From the NCBI GenBank assembly GCA_034660995.1, contig JAYEKL010000063.1, forward strand, positions 5,449 through 46,377: DNA of 40,929 nucleotides. Reading direction: 5' to 3'. A program made the position numbers and the translations under genes. Shown in pieces: positions 4,861 through 34,686 of the stretch. The DNA comes from Patescibacteria group bacterium (lineage in GTDB: Bacteria; Patescibacteriota; Minisyncoccia; JAHIHE01; JAGLIN01). The notes under the pieces were generated by a model. That model was not told the origin of the DNA. It did not search any database and worked only from the letters and a program-made list of their open reading frames with translations. How positions within the stretch are numbered: the first letter of the stretch is position 1; each line of letters starts with the position of its first letter.

Positions 4861-5424
4861 ATGCTTAAAGAAAAAAGACTAAGTCAAAAAAAAGTTTTAT
4901 TTATAGTTGGAAGTAAAAATTTTAGAGATGAAGAATATTTTATTCCATTTGGAATACTACAAAAAGAAGGCGCAACAATTATCACTGCTAGTTCAGTAAA
5001 AGGTGGAGTGATTGGCATTGAGGGAGGAGAAGCTAGATCAACGCTAACGCTAGAAGAGGTAGTTGTGAAAAATTTTGATGTAATCATTTTTGTTGGTGGA
5101 GACGGAGCTAATGAATACTTTGAAAATAATGAGGCTCATAAGATTATAGGAAAAGCAGTAGTAAAGCGCAAAGTTTTAGCTGCGATATGTATTGCTCCAG
5201 TAATTTTGGCAAAAGCAGGAATTCTTAGAGGCAAAAAGGCTACAGTATGGTCAAGTCTTATGAATAAAAGTGGAGCAGAAGCATTGAAAGAAGCTGGATG
5301 TACTGTAGAGGAAAAAAGAGTTGTTGTTGACGGTAGAATTGTTACGGCTGACGGTCCAGCAGTTGCTAAAGAATTTACAGAAGCTATAATTGAAACTCTT
5401 TTAAAGAAAAATGAGGAGGAATAG
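4861..5424 (+). CDS. DJ-1/PfpI family protein
   Basis: 187 aa. Nucleophile-elbow motif LAAICIAPVILAKAG and VIIFVGGDGA are typical of the class I glutamine-amidotransferase-like DJ-1/PfpI fold. Confidence 0.85.
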   Translation: MLKEKRLSQKKVLFIVGSKNFRDEEYFIPFGILQKEGATIITASSVKGGVIGIEGGEARSTLTLEEVVVKNFDVIIFVGGDGANEYFENNEAHKIIGKAVVKRKVLAAICIAPVILAKAGILRGKKATVWSSLMNKSGAEALKEAGCTVEEKRVVVDGRIVTADGPAVAKEFTEAIIETLLKKNEEE

Positions 5425-6990: not shown

Positions 6991-7088
6991 TAGGTATGGC
7001 CTTTTCTTATAATTCCCCTCTAGAGAGGGGGTTGGGGGTGTGTTAAAAAGCTTGTTACACACCCCTTACCCCTCTCAAGAGGGGAATA
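6991..7088 (+). repeat. Family-A GC-rich triple-hairpin element, copy A1
   Basis: ttttcttataattcccctctagagagggggttgggggtgtgttaaaaagcttgttacacaccccttacccctctcaagaggggaata. Hairpins are cccctct/agagggg, ggggtgtgt/acacacccc and cccctc/gagggg. Termini are inverted (aattcccctctagagagggg vs cccctctcaagaggggaata). Confidence 0.85.
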
Positions 7089-9513: not shown

Positions 9514-9730
9514 GACAAGGGAAAGGGAATTAGTATTAAGTGAACTAGTATTAAGTATTAAGTATTAAGCATCCCACTTAATATTCTTCGACCTTGTGGA
9601 GAAGTTGTACGCATAGAACCTTATTTCGCGCAAAAGAATATTATATACAATATTCCTTGACTCACAATATCTTTCTGTGACGCTAGTGCTTAATACTTAA
9701 TACTGCATACTTAATACTAGTTCCCTTGTC
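9514..9730 (+). mobile_element. Family-D element, copy D3: complete MITE-like unit with both terminal inverted arms
   Basis: The left end gacaaggga...ctagtattaagtattaagtattaagca and right end tgcttaatacttaatactgcatacttaatactagttcccttgtc are inverted repeats built from 7-nt units. The core ttcgaccttgtggagaagttgtacgcatagaa lies inside. There is no ORF. Confidence 0.8.
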
Positions 9731-14695: not shown

Positions 14696-14793
14696 AGGCT
14701 CTGCTGATTTTCTTATAATTCCCCTTTAGAGAGGGGGTTGGGGGTGTGTTAAGAAGCTTGTTACACACCCCTTGCCCCTCTCAAGAGGGGAAT
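14696..14793 (+). repeat. Family-A element, copy A2 (inside the ribosomal operon, between rpmJ and rpsM)
   Basis: aggctctgctgattttcttataattcccctttagagagggggttgggggtgtgttaagaagcttgttacacaccccttgcccctctcaagaggggaat. It is followed at 14797-14820 by a D-arm-like cttaaatactaaatacta. Confidence 0.85.
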
Positions 14794-19379: not shown

Positions 19380-20270
19380 ATGACAAGCGGACAGCGAAAA
19401 ATAAAAAAAGCATTTATTGTTTTAATAATTTTGTCTTTTTTAATTGTTACTTATAAAATAATTTTTCCAAAAGTTCCTGAACCGTGTTTTAATGGAGTTT
19501 TCGATATTGGAGAAGAGAAGGTTGATTGTGGGGGATTTTGTACTAAAGAATGTCCTCCGCCTCTAACACCTCCGAATGTTGATGAGATTGAAGTTGAGTG
19601 GGTAGAATTTATAAAGGATGGTGATGATAACTATGATTTAATTGCGAAAATTACAAATAAAAATTCTTCTTGGGGTATTTCTTCAATGAATTATATATTT
19701 GTAATTTATGGTGACAATAATAAAATAGTAAGAACGTCAAAAAATGAAACTTATATAATGCCAAAAGGATTTTTAAAAGAAAAAGGAGCAAAATATATAA
19801 TTGAGGATAATTATAAATCGGATTTTGATATTAAGAAAGTTGACATTAAACTATCTAAATATAATTGGAAAGAAATAAAAGATCCACGAGATCTTTCTGA
19901 TTTTGGTGCGAAAATTATAAATGTTAAAGATAAAAAAAGTGGGTTTGTCACAGATGGGTCAGGGTTCTACTATGTGTTTGGGGTGACTAAAAATACTTCT
20001 AAATACAGTTTTTATAGGGTTGACATTGATGTTATTATATATGACACAAGTGGTAAGCCACTTGCAGTTGGAAAAACAAATCAATGGACTGTGCCTGGTG
20101 GAGAAGGATGGGAATTCAAAATTTTTTGGAATGAGCCGTTTTTAGAGAATGTTAATCGTTCTGATTACAATATTGAACAGATTGATTATGAAGCTCAAAC
20201 AAATATTTTTGATTCAGAGAACTTTATGAAAGATTTTGGAACTGGAGAGAAATATATGACTCCAATGTAG
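19380..20270 (+). CDS. Membrane-anchored secreted protein with 4-Cys motif, unknown function
   Basis: 296 aa with an N-terminal TM (AFIVLIILSFLIVTY), then CFNGVFDIGEEKVDCGGFCTKEC, then a beta-rich domain. Confidence 0.55.
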   Translation: MTSGQRKIKKAFIVLIILSFLIVTYKIIFPKVPEPCFNGVFDIGEEKVDCGGFCTKECPPPLTPPNVDEIEVEWVEFIKDGDDNYDLIAKITNKNSSWGISSMNYIFVIYGDNNKIVRTSKNETYIMPKGFLKEKGAKYIIEDNYKSDFDIKKVDIKLSKYNWKEIKDPRDLSDFGAKIINVKDKKSGFVTDGSGFYYVFGVTKNTSKYSFYRVDIDVIIYDTSGKPLAVGKTNQWTVPGGEGWEFKIFWNEPFLENVNRSDYNIEQIDYEAQTNIFDSENFMKDFGTGEKYMTPM

Positions 20271-20276
20271 AAATTA

Positions 20277-20575
20277 GTGTTAAGTATTAAGTATTAAGGT
20301 TTTTGTTGCATGAATATTTGAATTTAACTTATTTGAACCATTTTTGCAAATTAATATTTTTTTAAAAATTGCTTAAACAAACTAGGATTTATTATTCATA
20401 TAATAAAGTAAATAAAGTCTGCTGATTTTTTTATAATTCCCCTCTAGAGAGGGGGTTGGGGGTGTGTTAAAAAGCTTGTTACACACCCCTTGCCCCTCTC
20501 AAGAGGGGAATAATCGGTAGTCCCTAAGTATAAAATATTAGGCTTAATACTTGATACTAAATACTTAATACTAAT
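20277..20575 (+). mobile_element. D-type terminal arms enclosing unrelated cargo that includes A4
   Basis: Left arm agtgttaagtattaagtattaagg (20277-20298) and right arm ggcttaatacttgatactaaatacttaatactaat (20541-20575) are inverted. The interior lacks the D core but contains A4. Confidence 0.55.
20419..20512 (+). repeat. Family-A element, copy A4
   Basis: ctgctgatttttttataattcccctctagagagggggttgggggtgtgttaaaaagcttgttacacaccccttgcccctctcaagaggggaata. Confidence 0.85.
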
Positions 20576-21871: not shown

Positions 21872-24613
21872 ATGAAAAAAGTTTTTAAATTGGTAATATT
21901 TTTAGTTTTAGTGGTTTTAATATGTAATACTGCTAAAGCTGTTAATATAGTTCCTTCTGCTATTATAGGGAATACTATTCAAGATGAAAATGATACTATT
22001 GTTATCACTTTTAATGAGTCAGTAACAGCTGCAGATGGAAATTGGTCTAGTAATGAGTTTACTTCTATTAAGAGTCCAATCGGAGTGTCTTTATCTTTGA
22101 CTAACGCATCTTTTGCTTATAGTGGCAATGTTTTAACAATTACACTGGATTTAAATACGGATAACGCCTATCTTAAAAATGGAAATATTATTGCTGTAAC
22201 TCCCGCTCTAGAAGCTATAGTTGACAGTACTTCTAATTTTTTACCAAATAATGAAGTACGAGGAACAATGGCAGTAACTGGAGATACTAGCGCTCCAATG
22301 GTAGCTTTGACTTATGACCCAGATAGAATAGTGGAATATACTGATTTTATAACCATAACTGCAACTTTTAGTGAGAGCTTGGAAGAATCTTCTCCATGTC
22401 CGTCAATTGCAATTAATACAGAAGGAGATGGAAGTCTAAGCAGTACAAATATGTCTAAGGTTTCTGAAACGGTTTGGACATATATCTGGGAAGTCCCAAA
22501 TGGTATTGACGAAAATGGAGTTGCTACTATTAATATTAATGCTACTGACTTAGCTGGAAATTATAGTCAAGTTGCTGCAAATAACACAAGAAATGTTAGT
22601 AATAGTTATGATGCGGTCAGTCCCAATATTATTGATGATTTGGAAGTTTATGCCACTACTAGCAACACTGCGACTTTAATTTGGAAGGCGCCGGGAGATG
22701 ATGGTGATATTGGCGTAGCCTCAAATTATGATATTAGATATGCATTATCGCAAGCTGAAATTTTGAATTGGTATGCTGCCACTCAGGTTAATAATGAGCC
22801 AAAACCTCAAATTGCCGGAACAAATCAAACTATAACTGTAACTAATCTTGATTCAGACGCGACCTATTATTTTGCTATAAGAACTTCAGACGAAGCGTTA
22901 AATATATCGTCACTGTCCAATATTGCTGATGGAATTACGCTAAAACCGTTAGACGAGACTGCTCCAGATGTTGTGACAGATCTAATAGTTTCTTATGTTA
23001 CTTCAAATTCTGCTGTTTTAAGCTGGATAGCGCCGGGAGATGATCGTGATATTGGAACTGCAACGAGCTATGATATTAGATATTCATCTTCGCGTTTGTC
23101 AACTTTAAATTGGTATGCCGCGACACAAATTAACAACGAACCACAACCGCAAATTGCCGGAGCTAATCAAACTGTAACAGTAAACGGACTTGATGCTAAT
23201 GCGACTTACCATTTCGCTATGAAAACTTATGATGAAGTAGAAAATGTTTCCGCAATATCTAACATAGTCAATGGTACTACCTTAGAGTTAGTAGATACTG
23301 TTACTCCTGATGTCATTACAAATTTAAAAGTTTCTCGTGTTACTTCAAACTCTGCTGTTTTAATTTGGACAGAGACTGGCGATGACGAGGATATTGGAAC
23401 TGCTTCAAGCTATGATATTAGATATTCAGAAAAGCCTATTAACGAAGTTGTTTGGTCGTCTGCGAATAGACTTAATCGTTCGATTAATCCATACATTGAT
23501 GGGGCAAATCAGACTGTTACTGTTACTGGACTTGATCCAGACACAATTTATTATTTCGCCATAAAAGTTTCCGATGAAGCATCAAATGTTTCAGAGTTAT
23601 CTAATATTGCAACAGGGACTACTTTAAAATATCTTGATAGAGTTGCGCCAGAAAGAGTGCGTGAATTTAATATAACAAGCTTATCAAAAATAAATAGCAC
23701 TGCTGTTATAACATGGGTAAATCCTGCTAATAAGGATTTTTCTAATGTGTTATTGATTAGAAGTGAAGATAAATATCCTTCACATATTGATGACGGAACT
23801 GTAATCTATAAAGGAAAAGGTAGTATTTTTAAAGATACTAAAACAGAAGATGAAAAAGTCTATTATTATAATATTTATTCTTTTGATAATGACGATAATT
23901 ATTCATTACCAGCGCAGAAAGTGTTTTTTTCTAATAATACGCTTGTAAAAAAACGCTATGAAGATAAAATTTATGTCGTGATTAACAGTGAAAAGCGCTG
24001 GATTCCAACGCCGGGAGTATTTAATAGAAATAGATATAAATGGGAAAATATTTATGAATTTTATGATAATATTATTGATACTATAAAAACTGGTGAACAT
24101 ATAGAGGATGATGAAGAAATAAAACTTGTTAAAAGTATGAACAGTTCGCGAGTTTATCTTATCAAAGGATACAGAAAAATATGGATTAAGACTATGAACG
24201 CATTTGTTGGCAGTGGATATGAATGGAAAAATATTATTGATATGGATATAAACGAGATAAGGGCTCACAATGATATAAAATTAATAAAGGAAGAGAATGA
24301 TTATCGTATTTATTATGTTCATAGTGAAATTGGAATGAAAAGACTTATTCCAAATATGATAACGTTTTTGTCGTATCCTTCAAGTAAGTGGGAAGATATT
24401 GAAATAGTAAGTAGAGCAATAGCGGATAGTTATGAAAATATAAATCTAATTAGAAGATTTGATGATTGTAATGTTTATCTTCTTGAGAATGGAGTTAAAA
24501 GACGTATTATGTCGCAAGAGGTTTTCAATGCAATGGGTTTTGATTGGAATAAAATAGCGGAAATAAATAATACCGAATTTAGCCAATACGAAACAGGTCA
24601 GAGTATTTATTAG
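21872..24613 (+). CDS. Secreted surface protein with tandem fibronectin-type-III-like domains and C-terminal repeats
   Basis: Signal peptide MKKVFKLVIFLVLVVLICNTAKA. Three 114-aa tandem units have an FN3-like pattern (TSNSAVLxWxAPGDDxDIGTAxSYDIRY...ATYYFAIKxxDE). Four C-terminal repeats follow, of the type VYLIxxGxKRxIxxxxxFxxxGxxWxxI. Confidence 0.8.
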   Translation: MKKVFKLVIFLVLVVLICNTAKAVNIVPSAIIGNTIQDENDTIVITFNESVTAADGNWSSNEFTSIKSPIGVSLSLTNASFAYSGNVLTITLDLNTDNAYLKNGNIIAVTPALEAIVDSTSNFLPNNEVRGTMAVTGDTSAPMVALTYDPDRIVEYTDFITITATFSESLEESSPCPSIAINTEGDGSLSSTNMSKVSETVWTYIWEVPNGIDENGVATININATDLAGNYSQVAANNTRNVSNSYDAVSPNIIDDLEVYATTSNTATLIWKAPGDDGDIGVASNYDIRYALSQAEILNWYAATQVNNEPKPQIAGTNQTITVTNLDSDATYYFAIRTSDEALNISSLSNIADGITLKPLDETAPDVVTDLIVSYVTSNSAVLSWIAPGDDRDIGTATSYDIRYSSSRLSTLNWYAATQINNEPQPQIAGANQTVTVNGLDANATYHFAMKTYDEVENVSAISNIVNGTTLELVDTVTPDVITNLKVSRVTSNSAVLIWTETGDDEDIGTASSYDIRYSEKPINEVVWSSANRLNRSINPYIDGANQTVTVTGLDPDTIYYFAIKVSDEASNVSELSNIATGTTLKYLDRVAPERVREFNITSLSKINSTAVITWVNPANKDFSNVLLIRSEDKYPSHIDDGTVIYKGKGSIFKDTKTEDEKVYYYNIYSFDNDDNYSLPAQKVFFSNNTLVKKRYEDKIYVVINSEKRWIPTPGVFNRNRYKWENIYEFYDNIIDTIKTGEHIEDDEEIKLVKSMNSSRVYLIKGYRKIWIKTMNAFVGSGYEWKNIIDMDINEIRAHNDIKLIKEENDYRIYYVHSEIGMKRLIPNMITFLSYPSSKWEDIEIVSRAIADSYENINLIRRFDDCNVYLLENGVKRRIMSQEVFNAMGFDWNKIAEINNTEFSQYETGQSIY
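22610..23635 (+). repeat. Three exact-length 342-bp tandem coding repeats (FN3-like units)
   Basis: Unit starts (Asp codons of DAVSPN / DETAPD / DTVTPD / next DRVAPE) fall at 22610, 22952, 23294 and 23636, each 342 nt apart. Confidence 0.85.
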
Positions 24614-24652: not shown

Positions 24653-24962
24653 TGTCATCTCAATCCGCCGGCTGGCGGAGAGAGATCTATAAGCTAAACA
24701 AGTCTCATTTAAACCTTTCTTATTTCCTGTATAGTATAGCTTACAGACCTGCCTGTCCGGCAGGCAGGTTTCTCACCCTATCGGGATTTGAAATGACAGT
24801 TACAAAAACTTGTCATCTCGACTGGAGCGATAGCGAATCTCGAAAAAATGCGTTGATGTCATCTCGACTGGAGCGATAGCGGAATGGAGAGATCTGTGAA
24901 CTGATTAAATCTCACATAGCATAGTTCTTAAATTTCTCACCCTATCGGGATTCGAAATGACA
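24653..24962 (-). repeat. Family-B composite hairpin-repeat cluster, copy B2 (reverse orientation)
   Basis: Contains tgtcatctcgactggagcgatagcg... twice, ttctcaccctatcgggatt(c/t)gaaatgaca twice, and tgtcatctcaatccgccggctggcggagagagatct. The reverse complement matches the B1/B3 order, including the linker ctatacaggaaataagaaaggtttaaatgagacttgttta. Confidence 0.85.
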
Positions 24963-24990: not shown

Positions 24991-25024
24991 AGTCTATTTT
25001 GCAACGGCCGTTGCAAAATAGACT
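24991..25024. repeat. Perfect 34-bp palindrome
   Basis: agtctattttgcaacgg|ccgttgcaaaatagact: 17-bp arms with no spacer and a GC-rich centre (cggccg). Confidence 0.9.
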
Positions 25025-25156: not shown

Positions 25157-26548
25157 ATGACACAAAAAAACGAAGATTTAATGGACAAAATAGTTTCACT
25201 TGCTAAAAGAAGAGGTTTTGTTTTTTCTGGAAGCGAAATTTATGGCGGTTTGGCGAATACTTGGGATTACGGACCTGTCGGGGTTGAATTGAAAAATAAC
25301 ATCAAGCAGGTTTGGTGGAAGTTTTTTGTTAAGAGTAGAGAAGATGTTGTCGGAATAGACGCTGCGATCTTAATGAATAGTCGTGTTTGGAAAACATCTG
25401 GGCATGTGGCTGGATTTAACGATGCTCTTGTTGACTGTCGGGCTTGTAAAGCAAGAATCAGAGTTGATCATTTAATTGAAGACAGTTTGAATATGAAGGC
25501 TGAAGGGATGACCACTGAAGATATGACGAAATTAATAGAAGAAAATGATATTAAGTGTCCAGTTTGTGGAAAAAAAGATTTTACAGATGCCAGAAAATTT
25601 GGTCTTATGTTTAAAACTTATCAGGGAGTGACGGAAGAAGATAAAAATATAATTTATCTTCGTCCTGAAACAGCGCAGGCGATGTTCGTAAATTTTAAAA
25701 ATGTTTTAAATTCTACACACAAAAAAATTCCATTTGGCATAGCGCAAATTGGGAAAGCATTTCGCAATGAAATAACACCTGGAAATTTTATTTTTAGAAC
25801 AGTTGAATTTGAGCAGATGGAACTTGAGTATTTTATTGATGAAAAGAATTGGGAAGAATCGTTTAAATATTGGCAAAAAGAAATGGCAAGTTGGCTTGAT
25901 CATATTGGCATAAAAAAAGAAAATTATTCAATAAGAGAGCATGATAAAGACGAGCTTTCGCATTATAGTAAAAAGACAATTGATTTTGAATACGATTTTC
26001 CATTTGGAACAAAAGAGCTTTATGGACTTGCGTATCGGACTAATTTTGATCTAACAAGTCATCAAAATTCAAGCGGGCAAAATATGGAATATTTTGATAC
26101 AGAAGGTAATAGAAAATATATCCCACATGTTATTGAGCCGACATTCGGAGTTGATAGAACTATTCTCGCGGCAATGGTTGATGCTTATTGCGAGGAAGAA
26201 GTATCAACGGCAAATGAAAAAACAGAGACACGAGTGGTAATGAAATTCAATAAAAATATCGCGCCAGTAAAGGTCGCAATTCTGCCTCTTAGCAAAAAAG
26301 AAAATTTAAGCAAAAAGGCAAAATATATTTTTGATTTACTAAAGACAGAATTCGCCTGCCAATACGACGAATCACAAAGCATTGGCAAGCGCTACCGTCG
26401 ACAAGATGAGATCGGCACGCCGTATTGTGTGACGGTTGATTTTGAGTCGTTAGAAGATGATGCGGTGACGGTGAGAGATAGAGATACGATGGAGCAGGAA
26501 AGGGTGAAAGTTGAGGAATTGGTAGGATGGTTGAAAGATGTTTTTTAG
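25157..26548 (+). CDS. glyQS: Glycine--tRNA ligase (alpha2-type class II)
   Basis: 463 aa with RRGFVFSGSEIYGGLANTWDYGPVGVELKNNIKQVWW, YLRPETAQAMFVNF, GIAQIGKAFRNEITP and EPTFGVDR. The last ~195 nt are visibly more GC-rich than the rest of the gene. Confidence 0.93.
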   Translation: MTQKNEDLMDKIVSLAKRRGFVFSGSEIYGGLANTWDYGPVGVELKNNIKQVWWKFFVKSREDVVGIDAAILMNSRVWKTSGHVAGFNDALVDCRACKARIRVDHLIEDSLNMKAEGMTTEDMTKLIEENDIKCPVCGKKDFTDARKFGLMFKTYQGVTEEDKNIIYLRPETAQAMFVNFKNVLNSTHKKIPFGIAQIGKAFRNEITPGNFIFRTVEFEQMELEYFIDEKNWEESFKYWQKEMASWLDHIGIKKENYSIREHDKDELSHYSKKTIDFEYDFPFGTKELYGLAYRTNFDLTSHQNSSGQNMEYFDTEGNRKYIPHVIEPTFGVDRTILAAMVDAYCEEEVSTANEKTETRVVMKFNKNIAPVKVAILPLSKKENLSKKAKYIFDLLKTEFACQYDESQSIGKRYRRQDEIGTPYCVTVDFESLEDDAVTVRDRDTMEQERVKVEELVGWLKDVF

Positions 26549-26598
26549 AGTGTAAGTTTTTGGTTTCTTAGAGTTTTAGAGTCATTAAAATGTGTTAA

Positions 26599-26660
26599 TG
26601 TCATTCAGTATGAAATAAATTCAGAGTCTGTCCTGAATTCAGTTCAGGAATGACAACTAT
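26599..26660 (+). repeat. B-type hairpin unit (ctgaattcag subtype)
   Basis: tgtcattcagtatgaaataaattcagagtctgtcctgaattcagttcaggaatgacaactat. Its 3' half is nearly identical to 29625-29666. Confidence 0.8.
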
Positions 26661-26710
26661 ACTTTTCGATTAAATTGAAAACTTAATAATCATAATATAA
26701 TATTAATATT

Positions 26711-26845
26711 ATGAAGAAAGATAAAACATACTATATTTATATTATAGCAAACATTACTAACAATGTTTTGTATAATAGTAGAAAAATAATTTACATTGAT
26801 GATCTGGAATTTAATTCGCAAGGCTGTTTTTGCCAGAAGAAGTAA
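26711..26845 (+). pseudogene. Truncated GIY-YIG nuclease gene (only the first ~22 codons are homologous)
   Basis: MKKDKTYYIYIIANITNNVLY matches MKTDRAYYIYITTNITNNVLY of the intact gene at 29206. A 27-nt identical run (caaacattactaacaatgttttgtata) ends at about 26776, after which the frame runs into unrelated sequence. Confidence 0.7.
26779..26794 (+). repeat. Left copy of perfect 16-bp direct repeat tagaaaaataatttac
   Basis: Identical 16-mer at 28310-28325. It lies 2-3 nt after the point where GIY-YIG homology stops. Confidence 0.9.
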
Positions 26846-26848
26846 AAA

Positions 26849-26876
26849 TTGACTTCTTTCTAAAATTTAGTATAAT
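26849..26876 (+). promoter_or_regulatory. Putative promoter of the ATPase gene (inside the cassette)
   Basis: TTGACT (26849-26854), 16-nt spacer, TATAAT (26871-26876). Confidence 0.5.
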
Positions 26877-26913
26877 TTAAATTAGGATAATCAGGATTAG
26901 GATAATTCAAATT

Positions 26914-28269
26914 ATGAAATTTATAAACAGGGAAAGAGAATTAGAAGCGATAAAGGAAAAATTAAATTCTGAGAATTTTGAATTTTATGTTATTTATGGG
27001 CGAAGAAGAATTGGCAAAACAGCTCTTTCTCTAATAAGTGTGAAAAATAAAAAAGCCATTTATTATCTAGCGACCGAAGAAAACAATTTGAGAAGATTCA
27101 AAGAAGTTGCTTCTAAATTAATTCCAGAAGTAAAATACGCCGAAGAAGATTTGGAAGCGATTTTTAGTTTTTTGAAAAATAAGACAATAATTATAGACGA
27201 GTTTCCAAATTTGATAAAAGAAAATCCAAAAGTTGTTTCGGAAATGCAAAGGATTATAGACCTTGTCCTAAGGGAAACAAAAACGAAACTGGTTATTTTA
27301 GGGTCGTCTATATCTATGATGGAAAGCAAGGTTTTGAGCTATCGCTCTCCTTTGTATGGAAGAAAGACCGGACAGATAAAACTGAAACCTTTGAAATTTT
27401 CGCAAATGAGAAAGTTTTTTCCCAAAGCGTCCGCGGAGAGAGCGGTTGAAATTTTCGGTTTTGCCGACGGAGTTCCTTTTTATTTGGAAAAAACAAAGTA
27501 TCCCTTTTGGAAATATTTGGATAAAGAATTAAAAAGCGTAGATAGCTTTTTAAAAACAGAAGTTGATTTTTTAATGAAATATGAATTTTCAGAAACAAGA
27601 ACTTATAAAAAGATTTTAGAAGCGATTGCTCTTGGGAATACCAAGTCAGGTGAAATTAAAAATCAAATCGGATTTAAAAAAACAGATATAACTCCGTATT
27701 TAAAAAATTTAATAGAAACGGAGTTCATTGAAAGAGATGTTCCTCTCTTAGAATCCGCAAAATCAAGAAAGGGAAGATATTATATCAAAGATAATTTTGT
27801 GAATTTTTGGTTTAAATTTATTTATCCAAATCGCAGTTTTATGGAAGAGGGAATTTTTTCCGCTGGTGAAATAAAAGAAAAGTATAACGCTTATCTCGGC
27901 TTTGTTTTTGAAAAAATTTGCCGAGAATTCTTAATTGAAAAAAGGAAAAAATTACCGGTTAATTTTTCAAAAATCGGTAGACAGTGGGGCGCGATTCCCG
28001 GCGCTGAAAAAAGAAAGAATCAATATGAAATTGATCTGCTTGCTTTAAACGATAAAACAAAGCAAATTATTTTTATAGAATGCAAGTGGCAGAATTTAAG
28101 AAAAGGGCAAGCGAGAAATATTTTAGAAGAATTAAGAGAGAAAAGCGGTGTTATTGAATGGAACAATAAAAAGCGGAAAGAATATTTCTGTTTAATGGCG
28201 AAGAAAATTGAAAATAAAAAAGAGCTGAGAAAAGAAGGATTTTTAGTTTTTGATTTGGAGGATTTTTGA
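26914..28269 (+). CDS. AAA-type ATPase of the archaeal-ATPase/DUF234 type with PD-(D/E)xK-like C-terminus
   Basis: 451 aa with Walker A GRRRIGKT and Walker B TIIIDEF. A central wHTH-like segment (KKILEAIALGNTKSGEIKNQIG) follows. The C-terminal YEIDLLAL...IIFIECKW resembles a restriction-endonuclease-fold D...ExK motif. Confidence 0.8.
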   Translation: MKFINRERELEAIKEKLNSENFEFYVIYGRRRIGKTALSLISVKNKKAIYYLATEENNLRRFKEVASKLIPEVKYAEEDLEAIFSFLKNKTIIIDEFPNLIKENPKVVSEMQRIIDLVLRETKTKLVILGSSISMMESKVLSYRSPLYGRKTGQIKLKPLKFSQMRKFFPKASAERAVEIFGFADGVPFYLEKTKYPFWKYLDKELKSVDSFLKTEVDFLMKYEFSETRTYKKILEAIALGNTKSGEIKNQIGFKKTDITPYLKNLIETEFIERDVPLLESAKSRKGRYYIKDNFVNFWFKFIYPNRSFMEEGIFSAGEIKEKYNAYLGFVFEKICREFLIEKRKKLPVNFSKIGRQWGAIPGAEKRKNQYEIDLLALNDKTKQIIFIECKWQNLRKGQARNILEELREKSGVIEWNNKKRKEYFCLMAKKIENKKELRKEGFLVFDLEDF

Positions 28270-28309
28270 TTTTTGTTAAAATATGTTTTCCAAATTGGAA
28301 AAAAAATGA

Positions 28310-28325
28310 TAGAAAAATAATTTAC
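28310..28325 (+). repeat. Right copy of perfect 16-bp direct repeat tagaaaaataatttac
   Basis: Identical to 26779-26794. Its last bases run directly into the glyQS 3' remnant. Confidence 0.9.
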
Positions 28326-28522
28326 CTGCCAATATGACGAATCACAAAGCATTGGTAAGCGCTATCGCCGTCAAGATGGAATTAGCACGCCCGTATTGTG
28401 TGATGATTGATTTTAAAAGTTTAGATGATAACGCAGTAACAGTGAGAGATAGAGATACGATGGAGCAGGAGAGGGTGGGGATTGGGGAGATAAAAAAATA
28501 TTTAGAAGAAAAATTAAGATAG
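28324..28522 (+). pseudogene. Displaced, frameshifted 3' remnant of glyQS
   Basis: Hand alignment to 26354-26548 gives about 123 of 146 identical nt up to ggagcagga, plus a 1-nt indel (gcacgcccg vs gcacgccg) that breaks the frame. It encodes ...CQYDESQSIGKRYRRQD then, after the shift, ...PYCVMIDFKSLDDNAVTVRDRDTMEQERV. It has its own stop at 28520-28522. Confidence 0.85.
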
Positions 28523-28526
28523 ATGT

Positions 28527-29186
28527 ATGAGCGAAATAATTATAGTTAAATTATTGTTTGTCATTGGTCCTATTATGCTTATTACCATGGTAGTGTTTTT
28601 AGCTGGAGTATGGCGCAATAAAAAAGCAAACTATTATAAAGAATTGATGATAAATAATATAATTTGTACGACAAACTTTGAAAAAAACAAATATGGAAAT
28701 TTAAAAGGCATTTATAATAATAAGAAAATATTAATAAAGTTTTATTTATTTGATATATATGCTATGCCAGAAAATTCATTTACAATAAATATTGAAACTA
28801 ATTTTTATGATGCGTCAAAACAAGCATTTGTTCCTAAAACATATTTTATTTTAAAGCAAAAAGAGTCATTTTTTAATTTGAAGAAAAAATCAAATGTAAA
28901 TTCTAATGATTTTGAAAATAGTTTTAATGTGAATAATAAGTATAATTTATCATTTGATAATAAAATTAAACAAAAATTAGAAATTCTTTTAAAAAACAAA
29001 TATTTTAACGCTTATACAAAATTAAAAGTTCAATCACCATCTAAAAGTCATGTTCAAAATAGAGGAAAAGTTGTTTTTGAAAAAATAAACAGTAAAATCA
29101 GTAAAAATTCTGATTCTCTTAAAATGGCTATGGATATTGTGGTTGATATAGCGAAACAGATGGACGAGATGAAAATGGGGAGGTGA
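28527..29186 (+). CDS. Hypothetical N-terminally anchored Asn/Lys-rich protein
   Basis: 219-aa ORF starting 4 nt after the glyQS-remnant stop. It has a TM (LLFVIGPIMLITMVVFLAGVW) and no recognisable motif. Very AT-rich, so its coding status is moderate. Confidence 0.45.
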   Translation: MSEIIIVKLLFVIGPIMLITMVVFLAGVWRNKKANYYKELMINNIICTTNFEKNKYGNLKGIYNNKKILIKFYLFDIYAMPENSFTINIETNFYDASKQAFVPKTYFILKQKESFFNLKKKSNVNSNDFENSFNVNNKYNLSFDNKIKQKLEILLKNKYFNAYTKLKVQSPSKSHVQNRGKVVFEKINSKISKNSDSLKMAMDIVVDIAKQMDEMKMGR

Positions 29187-29205
29187 AAATTAGGATTAAA
29201 GTGTT

Positions 29206-29496
29206 TTGAAAACAGACAGAGCATATTATATTTATATCACAACAAACATTACTAACAATGTTTTGTATATTGGAATAACTAATAATTTACCAAAAAGAAT
29301 ATACGAACATAAAAACGGTTTGGTAAAAGGTTTTTCTAAAAAATATAAAGTTAACAAATTAGTATATTATGAGAATACAAACGATGTAAATTCTGCTATT
29401 GCGAGAGAAAAGCAATTAAAAAATTGGCATCGGGAGTGGAAAATGAATTTAGTAGAAGCTAAAAATCCAGGATTTGTCGAGTTATTTATAAGTTGA
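29206..29496 (+). CDS. Small stand-alone GIY-YIG nuclease (UPF0213/YhbQ-like)
   Basis: 96 aa (TTG start) with YYIYITTNITNNVLYIGITNNLPKRIYEHK (GIY...YIG...R...E), KLVYYE and AIAREKQLKNWHREWK. Confidence 0.85.
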   Translation: MKTDRAYYIYITTNITNNVLYIGITNNLPKRIYEHKNGLVKGFSKKYKVNKLVYYENTNDVNSAIAREKQLKNWHREWKMNLVEAKNPGFVELFIS

Positions 29497-29507
29497 TATG
29501 TTATGCT

Positions 29508-29666
29508 TGTCATTCTGAACTTGTTTCAGAATCTATAGTATATTACAGTAAATTAACCTACAAATCACAGACTAAGTGTAGCAGTCAAAAGATCCTGAAA
29601 CCCGCTATCCAGCAGGCACGGCAAGTTCAGAGCCTGTCCTGAATTCAGTTTAGGGATGACAACTAT
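29508..29666 (+). repeat. B-type hairpin units directly downstream of the GIY-YIG gene
   Basis: tgtcattctgaacttgtttcagaatct ... agatcctgaaacccgctatccagcaggcacggcaagttcagagcctgtcctgaattcagtttagggatgacaactat. Confidence 0.8.
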
Positions 29667-29667
29667 G

Positions 29668-29793
29668 TTTGAGTTGAGCCTAGGTTGTACTATCCAAAGA
29701 TTGGGGGGAGTAAGAATTGAGGATTTGGTTGTAGTAACAAAAACTGGATGCAAAAATCTTACAAAATTTCCGAAGTTTTTGGAGATAAAATAG
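29668..29793 (+). pseudogene. 3' remnant of an M24-family Xaa-Pro peptidase gene
   Basis: The frame ending at TAG 29791-29793 reads F-ELSLGCTIQRLGGVRIEDLVVVTKTGCKNLTKFPKFLEIK. GGVRIED...VT..G...LT..PK.L is the conserved C-terminus of PepP/PepQ-type enzymes. No upstream part of the gene is present. Confidence 0.55.
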
Positions 29794-29817: not shown

Positions 29818-30125
29818 AGCTGATTTTCTTATAATTCCCCTCTAGAGAGGAGGTTGGGGGCAGGGTAATTCACTCTTGACAAAATAAACCTGTCATTCCG
29901 ACCGGAGCAAGCGAGGCACGAGCGAGCGGAGTGGAGGAATCTGTAAACACAATTATGTTTTGCTTATTTAGCAAATTACATTTTATCCGCTCACAGATCC
30001 CTCGGCTCCTATCGTTGCTCGGGATGACAAAAATGAGAAGATTTTAGGAGGAGTGAATTACCCTGGGGTTGGGGGTGTGTTAAAAAGCTTGTTACACACC
30101 CCTTGCCCCTCTCAAGAGGGGAATA
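29818..30125 (+). repeat. Family-A element, copy A5, split by insertion of another element
   Basis: The left part tagctgattttcttataattcccctctagagaggaggttggggg (to 29860) and right part gggttgggggtgtgttaaaaagcttgttacacaccccttgcccctctcaagaggggaata (from 30066) together reconstitute an A copy. Confidence 0.85.
29861..30065 (+). mobile_element. 205-bp MITE with perfect 15-bp terminal inverted repeats, inserted into A5
   Basis: TIRs cagggtaattcactc / gagtgaattaccctg. It is flanked by duplicated ggttggggg (29852-29860 and 30067-30075). The interior holds two opposed B-type units (tgtcattccgaccggagc...ggaggaatctgt and cagatccctcggctcctatcgttgctcgggatgaca). Confidence 0.85.
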
Positions 30126-30161
30126 ATTGGTAAAATAAATTTATAATTAATTTAAAAAACA

Positions 30162-34352: not shown

Positions 34353-34686
34353 TGTCATTTCGAACGGAGAGAGAAATCTATAAACTATACTATGCCAGAA
34401 ACGAGGAAGGTTTAAGTGAAACTTGTTTAATTCATAGATCTCTCCATTTCGCTATCGCTCCAGTCGAGATGACAAGTTTGTTTTATTCTTATTCCAAACA
34501 TAGTTGTCATTTCGAATCCCGATAGGGTGAGAAATCTGTAAGCGGATAAAATGGTTTGTTAGGAATAAATTAACTTGAAAACAGAGGTATAGTGTGCTTA
34601 CAGATCTCTCCATTCCGCTATCGCTTCAGTCGAGATGACATCTACGCGTTCCTTCAAGATACGCTATCACTCCAGTTGAGATGACA
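34353..34686 (+). repeat. Family-B composite hairpin-repeat cluster, copy B3
   Basis: Units present, in order: tgtcatttcgaacggagagagaaatct; agatctctccatttcgctatcgctccagtcgagatgaca; tgtcatttcgaatcccgatagggtgagaaatctgtaagcgga; cagatctctccattccgctatcgcttcagtcgagatgaca; plus a partial unit. It ends 32 nt from the leuS stop. Confidence 0.85.

Follow-up and report, generated by a model that had tools for sequence, protein, structure and literature searches.

Why should a gene for a small nuclease lie among hairpin repeats and the broken ends of housekeeping-type genes? The question is raised by a 40,929-nt stretch of DNA from a Patescibacteria group bacterium (assembly GCA_034660995.1, contig JAYEKL010000063.1, positions 5,449 to 46,377 of the forward strand), referred to throughout as the window. 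Its G+C content is about 31%, and its proteins are closest to those of metagenome-assembled genomes of Pacebacteria, Parcubacteria and Minisyncoccia. Between the genes glyQS and NIF3 it holds an intact gene for a small GIY-YIG protein, a 5' fragment of a second such gene, hairpin repeats of the form TGTCAT...ATGACA, an open reading frame (ORF) for an ATPase, and 3' ends of glyQS and of an M24 peptidase gene. The original prediction had named these same parts, all of which were confirmed by alignment, Pfam and NCBIfam, and had read them as one architecture seen twice: a mobile unit, served by the nuclease and bounded by the hairpins, that lands at the 3' ends of conserved genes.

We consider it likely that the 96-residue protein is an Ssn-type nuclease, that the hairpins are its SRM repeats, and that the gene remnants are rearrangement debris within a single variable spot. 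The partnership between such a nuclease and its hairpins was already published in 2025 (Chenal et al., Nat Commun 2025, PMC11893778). The added value of the present locus is modest and lies in its candidate phyla radiation (CPR) host, in an AT-rich subfamily of hairpins, and in evidence for deletion derivatives of the nuclease-bearing unit.

The nuclease and its published relatives

The intact gene, hereafter ssn, encodes little more than a GIY-YIG domain (Pfam PF01541, 9.6e-19), which spans residues 7-81 of the 96-aa protein and is accompanied by no second domain. The AlphaFold2 model is one compact domain with a predicted local distance difference test score (pLDDT) of 92.8; its top PDB matches are the UPF0213 structure 1zg2 (itself a single-domain GIY-YIG protein, and the best match), Slx1 and the N-terminal domain of UvrC. 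A sequence search of the PDB returned no solved Ssn relative, its lone match (NuoH) being spurious. The protein search yielded 1776 homologues, mostly of 94-100 aa, and in an alignment of 56 homologues Y21, R31, H35 and E68 are invariant and Y10 is at least 90% conserved. The intervals between Y10, Y21 and E68 (11 and 47 residues) equal those between Y6, Y17 and E64, the catalytic residues mutated in SsnA of N. meningitidis, a 94-aa single-domain GIY-YIG protein of the cd10448 group; the residues were mapped by this spacing, not by alignment (Chenal et al., Nat Commun 2025, PMC11893778).

SsnA binds its hairpin repeat, NTS (CGTCATTCCCGCGMAVGCGGGAATCYRG), only as single-stranded DNA (ssDNA) and cuts a few nucleotides upstream of it. 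Cutting is sensitive to the three nucleotides 5' of the palindrome, binding to the C that follows it; the complementary strand of NTS is not cut, nor is double-stranded DNA (dsDNA) cut by the characterised family members (PMC11893778). Hairpin binding and cleavage have been published for four members of the family, including the Neisseria and Wolbachia enzymes, and at least one SRM lies near 71% of homologues, with SRMs on both sides in 42% (PMC11893778). The authors of that work likened NTS-ssnA-NTS to an insertion sequence and, in their discussion, drew the parallel with repetitive extragenic palindromes (REPs) and their REP-associated tyrosine transposases (RAYTs), so that the similar analogy made in the original prediction was already in print; Patescibacteria are not mentioned in their main text (PMC11893778). 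On our reading the Ssn/SRM system would extend to CPR bacteria.

Protein identity across phyla is 56-72%. The window protein is 59% identical to that of an Atribacteria locus (L008), whose gene carries on both flanks TGTCATTCCCGCGAAAGCGGGAATCCAG-type hairpins with no more than two mismatches to the NTS consensus. The window protein is 59-67% identical to homologues from Syntrophaceae, WOR-3 and Atribacteria (L003, L004, L006 and L008), which is unusually high for 96 residues and would be compatible with either horizontal spread or very strong constraint. In L010, L015 and L019 the ssn frame enters the downstream hairpin and ends in ...GDPETSSG and a stop codon, which the ATGACA end of the repeat supplies; many 'long' homologues of 100-136 aa exist because the frame runs into this hairpin.

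Hairpin repeats as partners of the nuclease

Relatives of the protein were taken from 20 loci of GTDB species representatives, spanning CPR groups, Syntrophaceae, WOR-3, Atribacteria, KSB1, Nitrospirota, Bacteroidales and Flagellimonas. Hairpins were sought by their layout, namely GTCA[TC] followed by a stem of 5 nt that starts at AT, 3-40 nt of loop, the stem's complement and a C. The SRM/NTS layout, with its (H)GTC head, a palindrome beginning AT and a C directly after the stem, is present in the window, where the hairpin in its GTC-first orientation is TGTCATTCTGAACTTGTTTCAGAATC, also written TGCTTGTCATTCTGAACTTGTTTCAGAATCTATAG. The left SRM of the doublet downstream of ssn (29508-29533) reads TGTC-ATTCTGAA-CTTGT-TTCAGAAT-C and folds (-5.3 kcal/mol, z -3.0) into a stem of 8 bp closed by a loop of 5 nt. 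The reduced doublet that follows glyQS (26599-26660) folds as ssDNA at -10.7 kcal/mol (z -3.5) and has two right-end counterparts in L002 at 91-93% identity. As had been predicted, the two doublets share sequence: 26617-26660 and 29623-29666 are 91% identical over 44 nt. SRM-like hairpins number 15 in the whole window, where 1.2 would be expected and no more than 5 appeared in any of 200 simulations.

Nearly all of the homologous loci carry GTCAT-stem-loop-stem-ATC upstream of the gene, for example tgtcatcctgaacttgtttcaggatc, and the inverse downstream, gatcctgaaacaagttcaggatgaca. A hairpin lies within 250 bp of the gene in 21 of 23 homologous loci from many phyla. The forward hairpin is found upstream in 17 of the 23, the reverse hairpin downstream in 20, and both together, as an inverted pair, in 16. 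Near the gene the hairpin density is 5.33/kb compared with 0.34/kb elsewhere in the same loci, a 16-fold enrichment (P ~3e-50). The association between GIY-YIG gene and hairpin that was first suspected from adjacency is borne out by these counts, which support a functional link between the small GIY-YIG protein and the TGTCAT...ATGACA hairpins.

Several observations weigh against assigning the window hairpins to the SRM family. The published SRM pattern, HGTCWYN(0-2)YYVSBRHN(0-5)WNVSBRGN(0-2)RNCYNB, finds none of them and matches one of 24 related ssn loci (L008), and it was for this reason that the layout-based detector was used; since the pattern misses the window hairpins, the SRM link rests on the layout and on the near-canonical NTS of L008. 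As printed, the pattern requires G+C-rich stems, whereas the window stems are AT-rich (ATYCTGAA), and the AT-rich CTGAA-type hairpins form a cross-phylum subfamily (ATYCTGAA-CTTGT) outside the published search motif. There is no hairpin upstream of the intact ssn in the window, where the doublet lies 12 nt downstream; the ssn fragment has the reduced doublet upstream. The most numerous TGTCAT-ended elements of the window, T1/T2, have only the TGTCAT head and ATC tail in common, and their ends do not fold as individual hairpins, pairing instead with one another as long imperfect terminal inverted repeats (TIRs). These T1/T2 elements may have a partner other than this nuclease.

The adjacency of gene and repeat might also be incidental, the hairpins being REP-like terminators or mRNA stabilisers that are spread by another enzyme. 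The behaviour of the T1/T2 elements, which are the commonest, do not lie next to ssn and lack a single-hairpin fold, would suit this explanation, as would the presence of one intact ssn in 41 kb for about 12-15 hairpin ends and the report of no dedicated enzyme for the CGTC-tagged REPs (Di Nocera et al. 2013, PMC3733652). It is difficult to reconcile, however, with the enrichment and the fixed inverted orientation over 23 loci and many phyla, with the ssn leader and trailer carried by the ORF-less copies described below, or with the hairpin binding and cleavage published for four members of the family (PMC11893778). No T-run terminator follows the window hairpins, and an Rfam scan matched no window hairpin to a known RNA family. 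We regard an incidental association as very unlikely.

Complete units and ORF-less derivatives

The canonical unit, as seen in relatives, measures about 490 bp and consists of a left hairpin, a leader of ~115 nt, ssn, a trailer of ~85 nt and an inverted right hairpin. Units of 488-492 bp in L024 and L025 (81-82% protein identity) sit cleanly between two glycosyltransferase genes, with no gene remnants beside them. In an alignment, the ORF-less copies in L022, L024, the window, L108 and L110 (Table 1) agree with the ORF-bearing units of L024/L025 at both ends and in the subterminal sequence. This alignment identifies the ORF-less doublets next to ssn as internal-deletion derivatives, in a series from 490 bp through ~210 bp to ~110-160 bp. 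The series offers concrete evidence that CGTC/TGTC-tagged REP doublets descend from a nuclease-bearing unit. The earlier proposal that the nuclease mobilises the ORF-less hairpins is therefore strengthened for the doublets next to ssn, while for T1/T2 the link is putative.

The same family varies in copy number and place. L015 has two units within 8 kb that are 89% identical, and Ssn proteins of 81-84% identity are found in unrelated contexts. L108/L110 have filled FtsW-fn3 and NIF3-M3 spacers where those of the window are nearly empty; for the fn3-glyQS spacer the window is the filled one and L108/L110 are empty. The comparison shows that ORF-less derivatives come and go between orthologous spacers, and this presence or absence between close relatives adds to the evidence for the descent of REP doublets. 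The element is not the sole difference between filled and empty spacers, and no target-site duplication and no common target or flank was found at seven element ends or in the filled-versus-empty orthologous spacers. Given the deletion series and the pattern of presence and absence, the family behaves like an autonomous/non-autonomous repeat family.

Two Bacteroidales loci, L011 (1640-2680) and L013, have a hairpin-ssn-hairpin unit with a tandem array of six right-end hairpins. The unit appears to split one ORF, at the same position in both genomes; the split ORF of L011 has no match in Pfam. Direct repeats of 85 nt (1398-1482 and 2680-2764), palindromic in themselves, enclose the whole arrangement in L011.

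The glyQS-NIF3 locus in relatives

If the unit of L024/L025 can be clean, where do the gene remnants of the window come from? The window shares both flanks of the locus with its relatives at 85-90% identity, and the relatives (Table 1) can be used to read the debris segment by segment. In the window the segments run glyQS, reduced doublet, leader with ssn codons 1-21, M24 nt 100-141, promoter-like spacer and ATPase; after the ATPase follow M24 nt 89-119, the second glyQS 3' end (glyQS'), ORF219, ssn, the ORF-less doublet or MITE (miniature inverted-repeat transposable element), M24 nt 993-1112 and NIF3.

Table 1. Features of the window, ORF-less copies of the unit, and gene order in relatives of the glyQS-NIF3 locus (L numbers denote loci; percentages for the relatives are glyQS protein identities to the window)
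Feature	Position or size	Strand	Remarks
T1/T2-type TGTCAT-ended MITE copies	86-296
T1/T2/T4-type TGTCAT-ended MITE cluster	24653-24962		between fn3 and glyQS; absent from the orthologous spacer of L108/L110
glyQS, intact (glycine-tRNA ligase, 463 aa)	25157-26548	+	Pfam tRNA-synt_2b, HGTP_anticodon
Reduced SRM doublet (mini-MITE)	26599-26660		truncated TGTCATTC head and right-end SRM ...TTCAGAGTCTGTCCTGAATTCAGTTCAGGAATGACA-ACTAT
Remains of resident ssn unit	26661-26773	+	last ~50 nt of the conserved leader and ssn codons 1-21
M24 (Xaa-Pro peptidase) fragment	26774-26815	+	M24 nt 100-141; 40/42 nt as in L108 M24; fused to ssn codon 21
ATPase_2/DUF234 ORF (451 aa)	26914-28269	+	Pfam ATPase_2 1.8e-32, DUF234 1e-27
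Second M24 fragment	28294-28324	+	M24 nt 89-119; 28/31 nt as in L108 M24; joins glyQS' in AATTTAC microhomology
glyQS' 3' remnant	28325-28522	+	glyQS nt ~1199-1392, one frameshift; contiguous with ORF219
ORF219, hypothetical protein	28527-29186	+	counterpart follows glyQS in relatives
ssn, intact	29206-29496	+	96-aa single-domain GIY-YIG; TTG start 20 nt after ORF219
ORF-less SRM doublet (MITE)	29508-29666		left SRM, ~52 nt of ssn-unit leader, right SRM ending ATGACA-ACTAT
M24 3' remnant	29672-29792/29793 (C-terminal stub 29656-29793)	+	M24 nt 993-1112, frameshifted; upstream of NIF3
TGTCAT...ATGACA doublet	29891-30029		nested inside two larger palindromic elements, 29824-30134
T1/T2/T7-type TGTCAT-ended MITE copies	34353-34686
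ORF-less copies in L022 (two, flanking ssn)	209-211 bp		leader and trailer, ORF missing
ORF-less copy in L024	~220 bp		~1 kb downstream of the L024 unit; 79.6% identical to the unit's concatenated ends
ORF-less copies in the window (29508-29666), L108 and L110	~110-160 bp		left and right hairpins around the first ~52 nt of leader
Relative L110 (92%)			FtsW-fn3-glyQS-[118-bp TGTCAT..ATGACA element]-M24(370 aa)-137 aa-NIF3-M3
Relatives L108/L109 (91%)			glyQS-ORF228-ORF428-[38-bp hairpin]-M24-NIF3-M3
Relatives L111/L112 (87%)			glyQS-189 aa-AbiEii-NIF3
Relatives L113-L115 (81%)			glyQS-[hairpin]-ORF135-[full ssn unit]-50 nt-M24 (frameshifted)-NUDIX-NIF3-M3
Relative L116 (79%, N-terminal part)			glyQS-ORF221-~190 nt-M24 3' stub

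These gene orders give glyQS-(spacer)-M24-NIF3 as the ancestral arrangement. Because M24 ends directly upstream of NIF3 in the syntenic relatives, the M24 3' remnant of the window lies in its ancestral place and is not, as was at first supposed, displaced. The spacer between glyQS and NIF3 is a variable spot with its own cargo in each relative: ORF228/ORF428, AbiEii, ORF135 with ssn, or ORF221. The state of M24 itself varies by lineage, from an intact gene to one that is frameshifted, cut down to a 3' stub or missing, and it has decayed independently in several of them. The L116 lineage has an M24 stub similar to that of the window without any ssn. A truncation event common to the two was considered and set aside, as their breakpoints differ by ~20 nt. 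A metagenome scan with glyQS returned only ~58%-identical proteins from unrelated bacteria, and no empty sites were obtained from it.

The M24 pieces are well anchored. The 3' remnant is 84% identical to the M24 genes of L108 and L113 and matches NCBIfam PepQ at positions 312-341 of 346, and none of 500 shuffles reached its alignment score or that of either shorter M24 fragment. These two shorter fragments overlap at M24 nt ~100-120. A 16-bp repeat, tagaaaaataatttac, had been thought to bound an ATPase cassette whose removal would place the glyQS remnant directly behind the GIY-YIG fragment; the repeat is M24 nt ~104-120, the overlap of the two fragments, and it is M24 sequence that comes after the GIY-YIG fragment. 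This identity rules out both the reading of the repeat as ssn sequence and that of a target-site duplication of the ATPase cassette.

The ATPase ORF lies between M24 nt 100-141 (upstream) and M24 nt 89-119 (downstream), an arrangement that looks like an insertion with a target duplication of ~50 bp or a circularly permuted segment. A near-consensus promoter-like site (26849-26876) lies upstream of the ORF, and a strain contig of 99% identity (L106) has the ATPase arranged as in the window. The ORF matches the candidate defence family PDC-S27 of PADLOC (1.1e-44), and we treat it as a candidate defence gene and as cargo of the variable spot, outside the Ssn system. With AbiEii in the same spot of L111, this makes the cargo typical of variable or defence islets. 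A tRNA scan found no tRNA integration site near the locus.

The ssn fragment is best explained by a unit that was already resident. The fragment (26709-26794) is 81.6% identical over 87 nt to the start of the intact gene (29204-29290), and at the protein level the tblastn match covers residues 1-21 only (26711-26773, 71%); these remains have no catalytic core and are non-functional. The leader and fragment are 89% identical to the unit of L113/L115 and 80-81% identical to the leader and ssn of L024/L025. The L113/L115 unit lies between glyQS and M24, ending in L113 ~50 nt upstream of the M24 start. Since the leader and fragment are 89% identical to the L113 unit, with the glyQS genes of window and L113 only 77-80% identical, we take them to be what is left of a resident unit. 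The fusion of ssn codon 21 to M24 nt 100 would have come about by a deletion of roughly 450 bp.

The second glyQS 3' end repeats the end of the intact gene (26349-26506 against 28319-28477, 83.6% over 159 nt), matches HGTP_anticodon (2.8e-10) and is closest to the 3' end of L111 glyQS (83%); the intact glyQS is 85-87% identical over its full length to those of L108/L110. In L116, glyQS at the place equivalent to the M24/glyQS' junction reads ttaaaaacagaatttacctgcc (14 of 17 nt match), also read ...acagaatttacctgcc, and window positions 28307-29182 align in one piece with glyQS-ORF221 of L116 (80.6% over 876 nt). As glyQS' is contiguous with ORF219 in the way that glyQS is with ORF221 in L116, it belongs to a second copy of the block that follows glyQS and not to a nuclease element. 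The glyQS'-ORF219 block is joined to M24 nt ~120 within the AATTTAC microhomology. ORF219 has 69% amino acid identity to ORF221 of L116 and 35-36% to ORF228/ORF428 of L108; it has no match in Pfam, NCBIfam or PADLOC, and the relatives' ORFs have none in Pfam.

When the relatives' ORFs were compared with all intergenic DNA of the window, gene remnants were found only at the glyQS-NIF3 spot, and some 10 further hairpin elements of the window had none beside them. A hairpin terminus coincides with only one of the four novel junctions, where the MITE end ...ATGACAACTAT meets M24 nt ~993, about where Ssn would be predicted to nick the bottom strand. What had been taken for two independent instances of an architecture is thus one scrambled locus in which glyQS' travels with ORF219, and the clean units of L024/L025, the restriction of remnants to this spot and the single junction at a hairpin all speak against elements that target the 3' ends of conserved genes and against a causal link between element and remnants. 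The locus shows how a small variable spot in a reduced genome can gain cargo while M24, a gene of the housekeeping type, is destroyed there in several lineages, and it cautions that synteny should be checked before gene fragments beside a repeat are read as a signature of insertion.

The glyQS pair leaves some latitude in this reconstruction. Both duplicated pairs (the glyQS 3' end and the ssn 5' end) are ~81-84% identical, and the glyQS pair has an excess of differences in the third codon position (11, 8 and 20 mismatches at positions 1, 2 and 3), as would suit recombination with DNA of a related lineage, although the codon-position test favours a xenologous copy only weakly. A tandem duplication followed by divergence would give the same topology; the order and mechanism of the rearrangements proposed here are accordingly conjectural. 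Neither glyQS 3' copy can be called native with confidence, because this end is hypervariable in all relatives; a C-terminal comparison and an identity profile point to neither copy. The last ~194 nt of glyQS (26355-26548) form the left edge of the variable spot, and the L108 and L110 genes are 93.9% identical over nt 1-1198 and 80.4% afterwards. At least three types of glyQS C-terminal tail (WLKxAF, WLRxKLx and YLxEKLx) occur among the window, L108, L110, L111 and L113, with a distribution at odds with the phylogeny of the gene body. The hypervariable end suggests recurrent recombination there, with the edge of the exchange spot inside the gene end.

Possible modes of spread

By analogy with the Neisseria and Wolbachia enzymes, the window protein would bind its hairpin only in ssDNA and nick a few nucleotides 5' of the GTC head. 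Nicking of ssDNA at replication forks or on incoming transforming DNA might then stimulate recombination and copying. It is unlikely that Ssn acts as a true transposase: as GIY-YIG chemistry is hydrolytic and each strand offers one cleavable site, spread would proceed by nick-stimulated recombination or copying instead. At the glyQS-NIF3 locus, a resident ssn unit upstream of M24 may have been fused by deletion to M24 nt 100, and a second, ~81%-identical block of glyQS (3' end), ORF219, ssn and MITE may have been joined to M24 nt ~120 through the AATTTAC microhomology. The likely route for the latter would be homology-facilitated illegitimate recombination with DNA of a related lineage, one end being anchored by homology. 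The scrambled locus would then be a hot spot that underwent a deletion, the insertion of cargo and a single illegitimate recombination.

A more general model can be put forward tentatively, although we think it more doubtful than not: hairpin-ssn-hairpin would be a class of mobile element driven by a hydrolytic ssDNA nickase, with nicks 5' of the outward-facing GTC heads of both strands priming copying or recombination and spawning ORF-less doublets, and spacers such as glyQS-NIF3 would become hot spots of cargo exchange. If this were true, Ssn would be the long-sought 'missing enzyme' of CGTC-tagged REPs, and streamlined CPR genomes would possess cargo-exchange hot spots that include defence genes.

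A stronger claim is that the hairpin-bounded unit is an autonomous transposon, with the nuclease as its transposase, which lands at the 3' ends of conserved genes and leaves remnants there. Its inverted ends and ORF-less deletion derivatives are those of an insertion sequence. The copies in L015, the 81-84%-identical proteins in unrelated contexts, the variable occupancy of orthologous spacers and the 56-72% protein identity across phyla would all be expected of such a transposon. So would the junction of the MITE end with M24 nt ~993, at a hairpin terminus and about at the predicted Ssn nick, and the ORF that the unit appears to split in L011 and L013. The chemistry is the principal difficulty: GIY-YIG enzymes are hydrolytic nickases and are not known to carry out strand transfer. 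Moreover, Ssn cuts the GTC-first strand only, which leaves one cleavable site per strand and cannot excise a strand. Neither target-site duplications nor a common target were found at the elements examined, and the units are stably syntenic within lineages (L024/L025 and L113-L115). Synteny also explains the remnants, with M24 in place, the 16-bp repeat being M24 and glyQS' accompanied by ORF219; three of the four junctions are away from hairpins, and L116 has an M24 stub without ssn. We therefore judge an autonomous transposon unlikely.

Free-standing GIY-YIG homing endonucleases exist in phages, and ssn could in principle be one, cutting dsDNA of glyQS or M24 alleles that lack the gene, so that the gene ends would be co-conversion tracts. 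Besides the phage precedents, the mosaic 3' end of glyQS in all relatives would be in keeping with this, as would a weak match to the group I intron endonuclease family NCBIfam TIGR01453 (1.5e-4, 21.9 bits, below the 56-bit cut-off). The window protein is, however, a bare catalytic domain of 96 aa without a DNA-binding module, and its homologues occur in many unrelated intergenic contexts and not beside one target gene. It is the flanking hairpin, and no host gene, that is conserved beside ssn, and the characterised members do not cut dsDNA. A homing endonuclease is scarcely credible on this evidence, and an Ssn-type nuclease acting on its hairpins is the reading that we retain.

Comparison with known systems

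The features of the window that resemble the Ssn/SRM system are a single-domain GIY-YIG protein of ~94-96 aa, repeats with a GTC head, an AT-starting palindrome and a C after the stem, and the placing of these repeats both as an inverted pair around the gene (in relatives) and scattered in intergenic DNA. The differences are the Patescibacteria host, the AT-rich stems and the retention of ssn leader and trailer in the ORF-less copies.

CGTC-tagged REPs have a tag that is often TGTC, stems of 8-9 bp starting AT and loops of 4-5 nt (Di Nocera et al. 2013, PMC3733652); they occur in five phyla, commonly as inverted dimers, and 'lack a dedicated transposase' (BMC Genomics 2013, PMC3733652). The window repeats share with them the unpaired TGTC tag, the 8-bp stem starting AT, the 5-nt loop, a short tail and the inverted dimers. 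They differ in being tied to ssn and in that some have long loop insertions (T4, T5) or long imperfect TIRs (T1/T2).

The REP/RAYT and REPIN system, reportedly described by Nunvar in 2010 and by Bertels and Rainey in 2011, likewise combines a single-copy enzyme gene between inverted hairpins with dispersed ORF-less doublets and an absence of target-site duplications. RAYT belongs to the HUH/Y1 transposases, acts through a covalent intermediate and is able to rejoin DNA, and its REPs are GTAG-headed, whereas the enzyme here is a GIY-YIG hydrolytic nickase and the head is GTC. The chemistry of spread therefore cannot be the same, and no window ORF scanned matched Y1_Tnp in Pfam. Elements of the IS200/IS605 group resemble the present system in hairpins that are recognised in ssDNA, in cleavage away from the hairpin and in the lack of target-site duplications. 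Their transposase TnpA cuts both ends on the same strand, in contrast to the inverted Ssn hairpins, which give one cleavable end per strand, and there is no Y1 transposase here. With the GIY-YIG homing endonucleases (phage T4 Seg proteins, I-TevI) the window protein shares the catalytic fold and the setting of a small, selfish-looking gene between host genes. Those enzymes bind DNA through a C-terminal domain, and what they cut is the dsDNA of one specific host gene; the window protein is a bare catalytic domain whose conserved partner is a hairpin and whose contexts are unrelated.

Other repeats in the window and its relatives

A second palindromic repeat family, ATTCCCCTCTAGAGAGGGGGTTGGGG ... 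CCCCTTGCCCCTCTCAAGAGGGGAAT, occupies at least four sites in the window (29824-30134, 7012-7087, 14718-14793 and 20433-20514). The palindrome at 29824-30134 encloses an inverted repeat (29861-29885 and 30041-30065), which in turn encloses the TGTCAT...ATGACA doublet at 29891-30029, so that the nesting is three deep, as though each element had gone into the loop of an earlier palindrome. A third inverted-repeat family, with AGTATTAAGTATTAAG-type units, is found at 9538-9727 and 20268-20575 and flanks segments of 120-250 bp, one of which encloses the second-family copy at 20433-20514.

Runs of a short TTAGRR-type repeat (ttagaatattagaaaattagagattagg...) occur in many spacers, beside hairpin elements and upstream of genes (L110 7400-7460 and 10130-10190; L108 9420-9440, 9490-9600 and 11720-11790; window 26560-26590 and 26880-26905), and are present even where the hairpin element is absent. 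Upstream of glyQS the window has a perfect palindrome of 17+17 nt, AGTCTATTTTGCAACGG/CCGTTGCAAAATAGACT (24991-25024), which TTTGCAA-centred hairpins in the L116 spacer (5250-5290 and 5370-5400) resemble; together these may represent another small hairpin family. Finally, the 913-aa fn3-domain ORF (21872-24613) contains internal tandem repeats of ~340 nt with 66-69% identity at 22664-23626.

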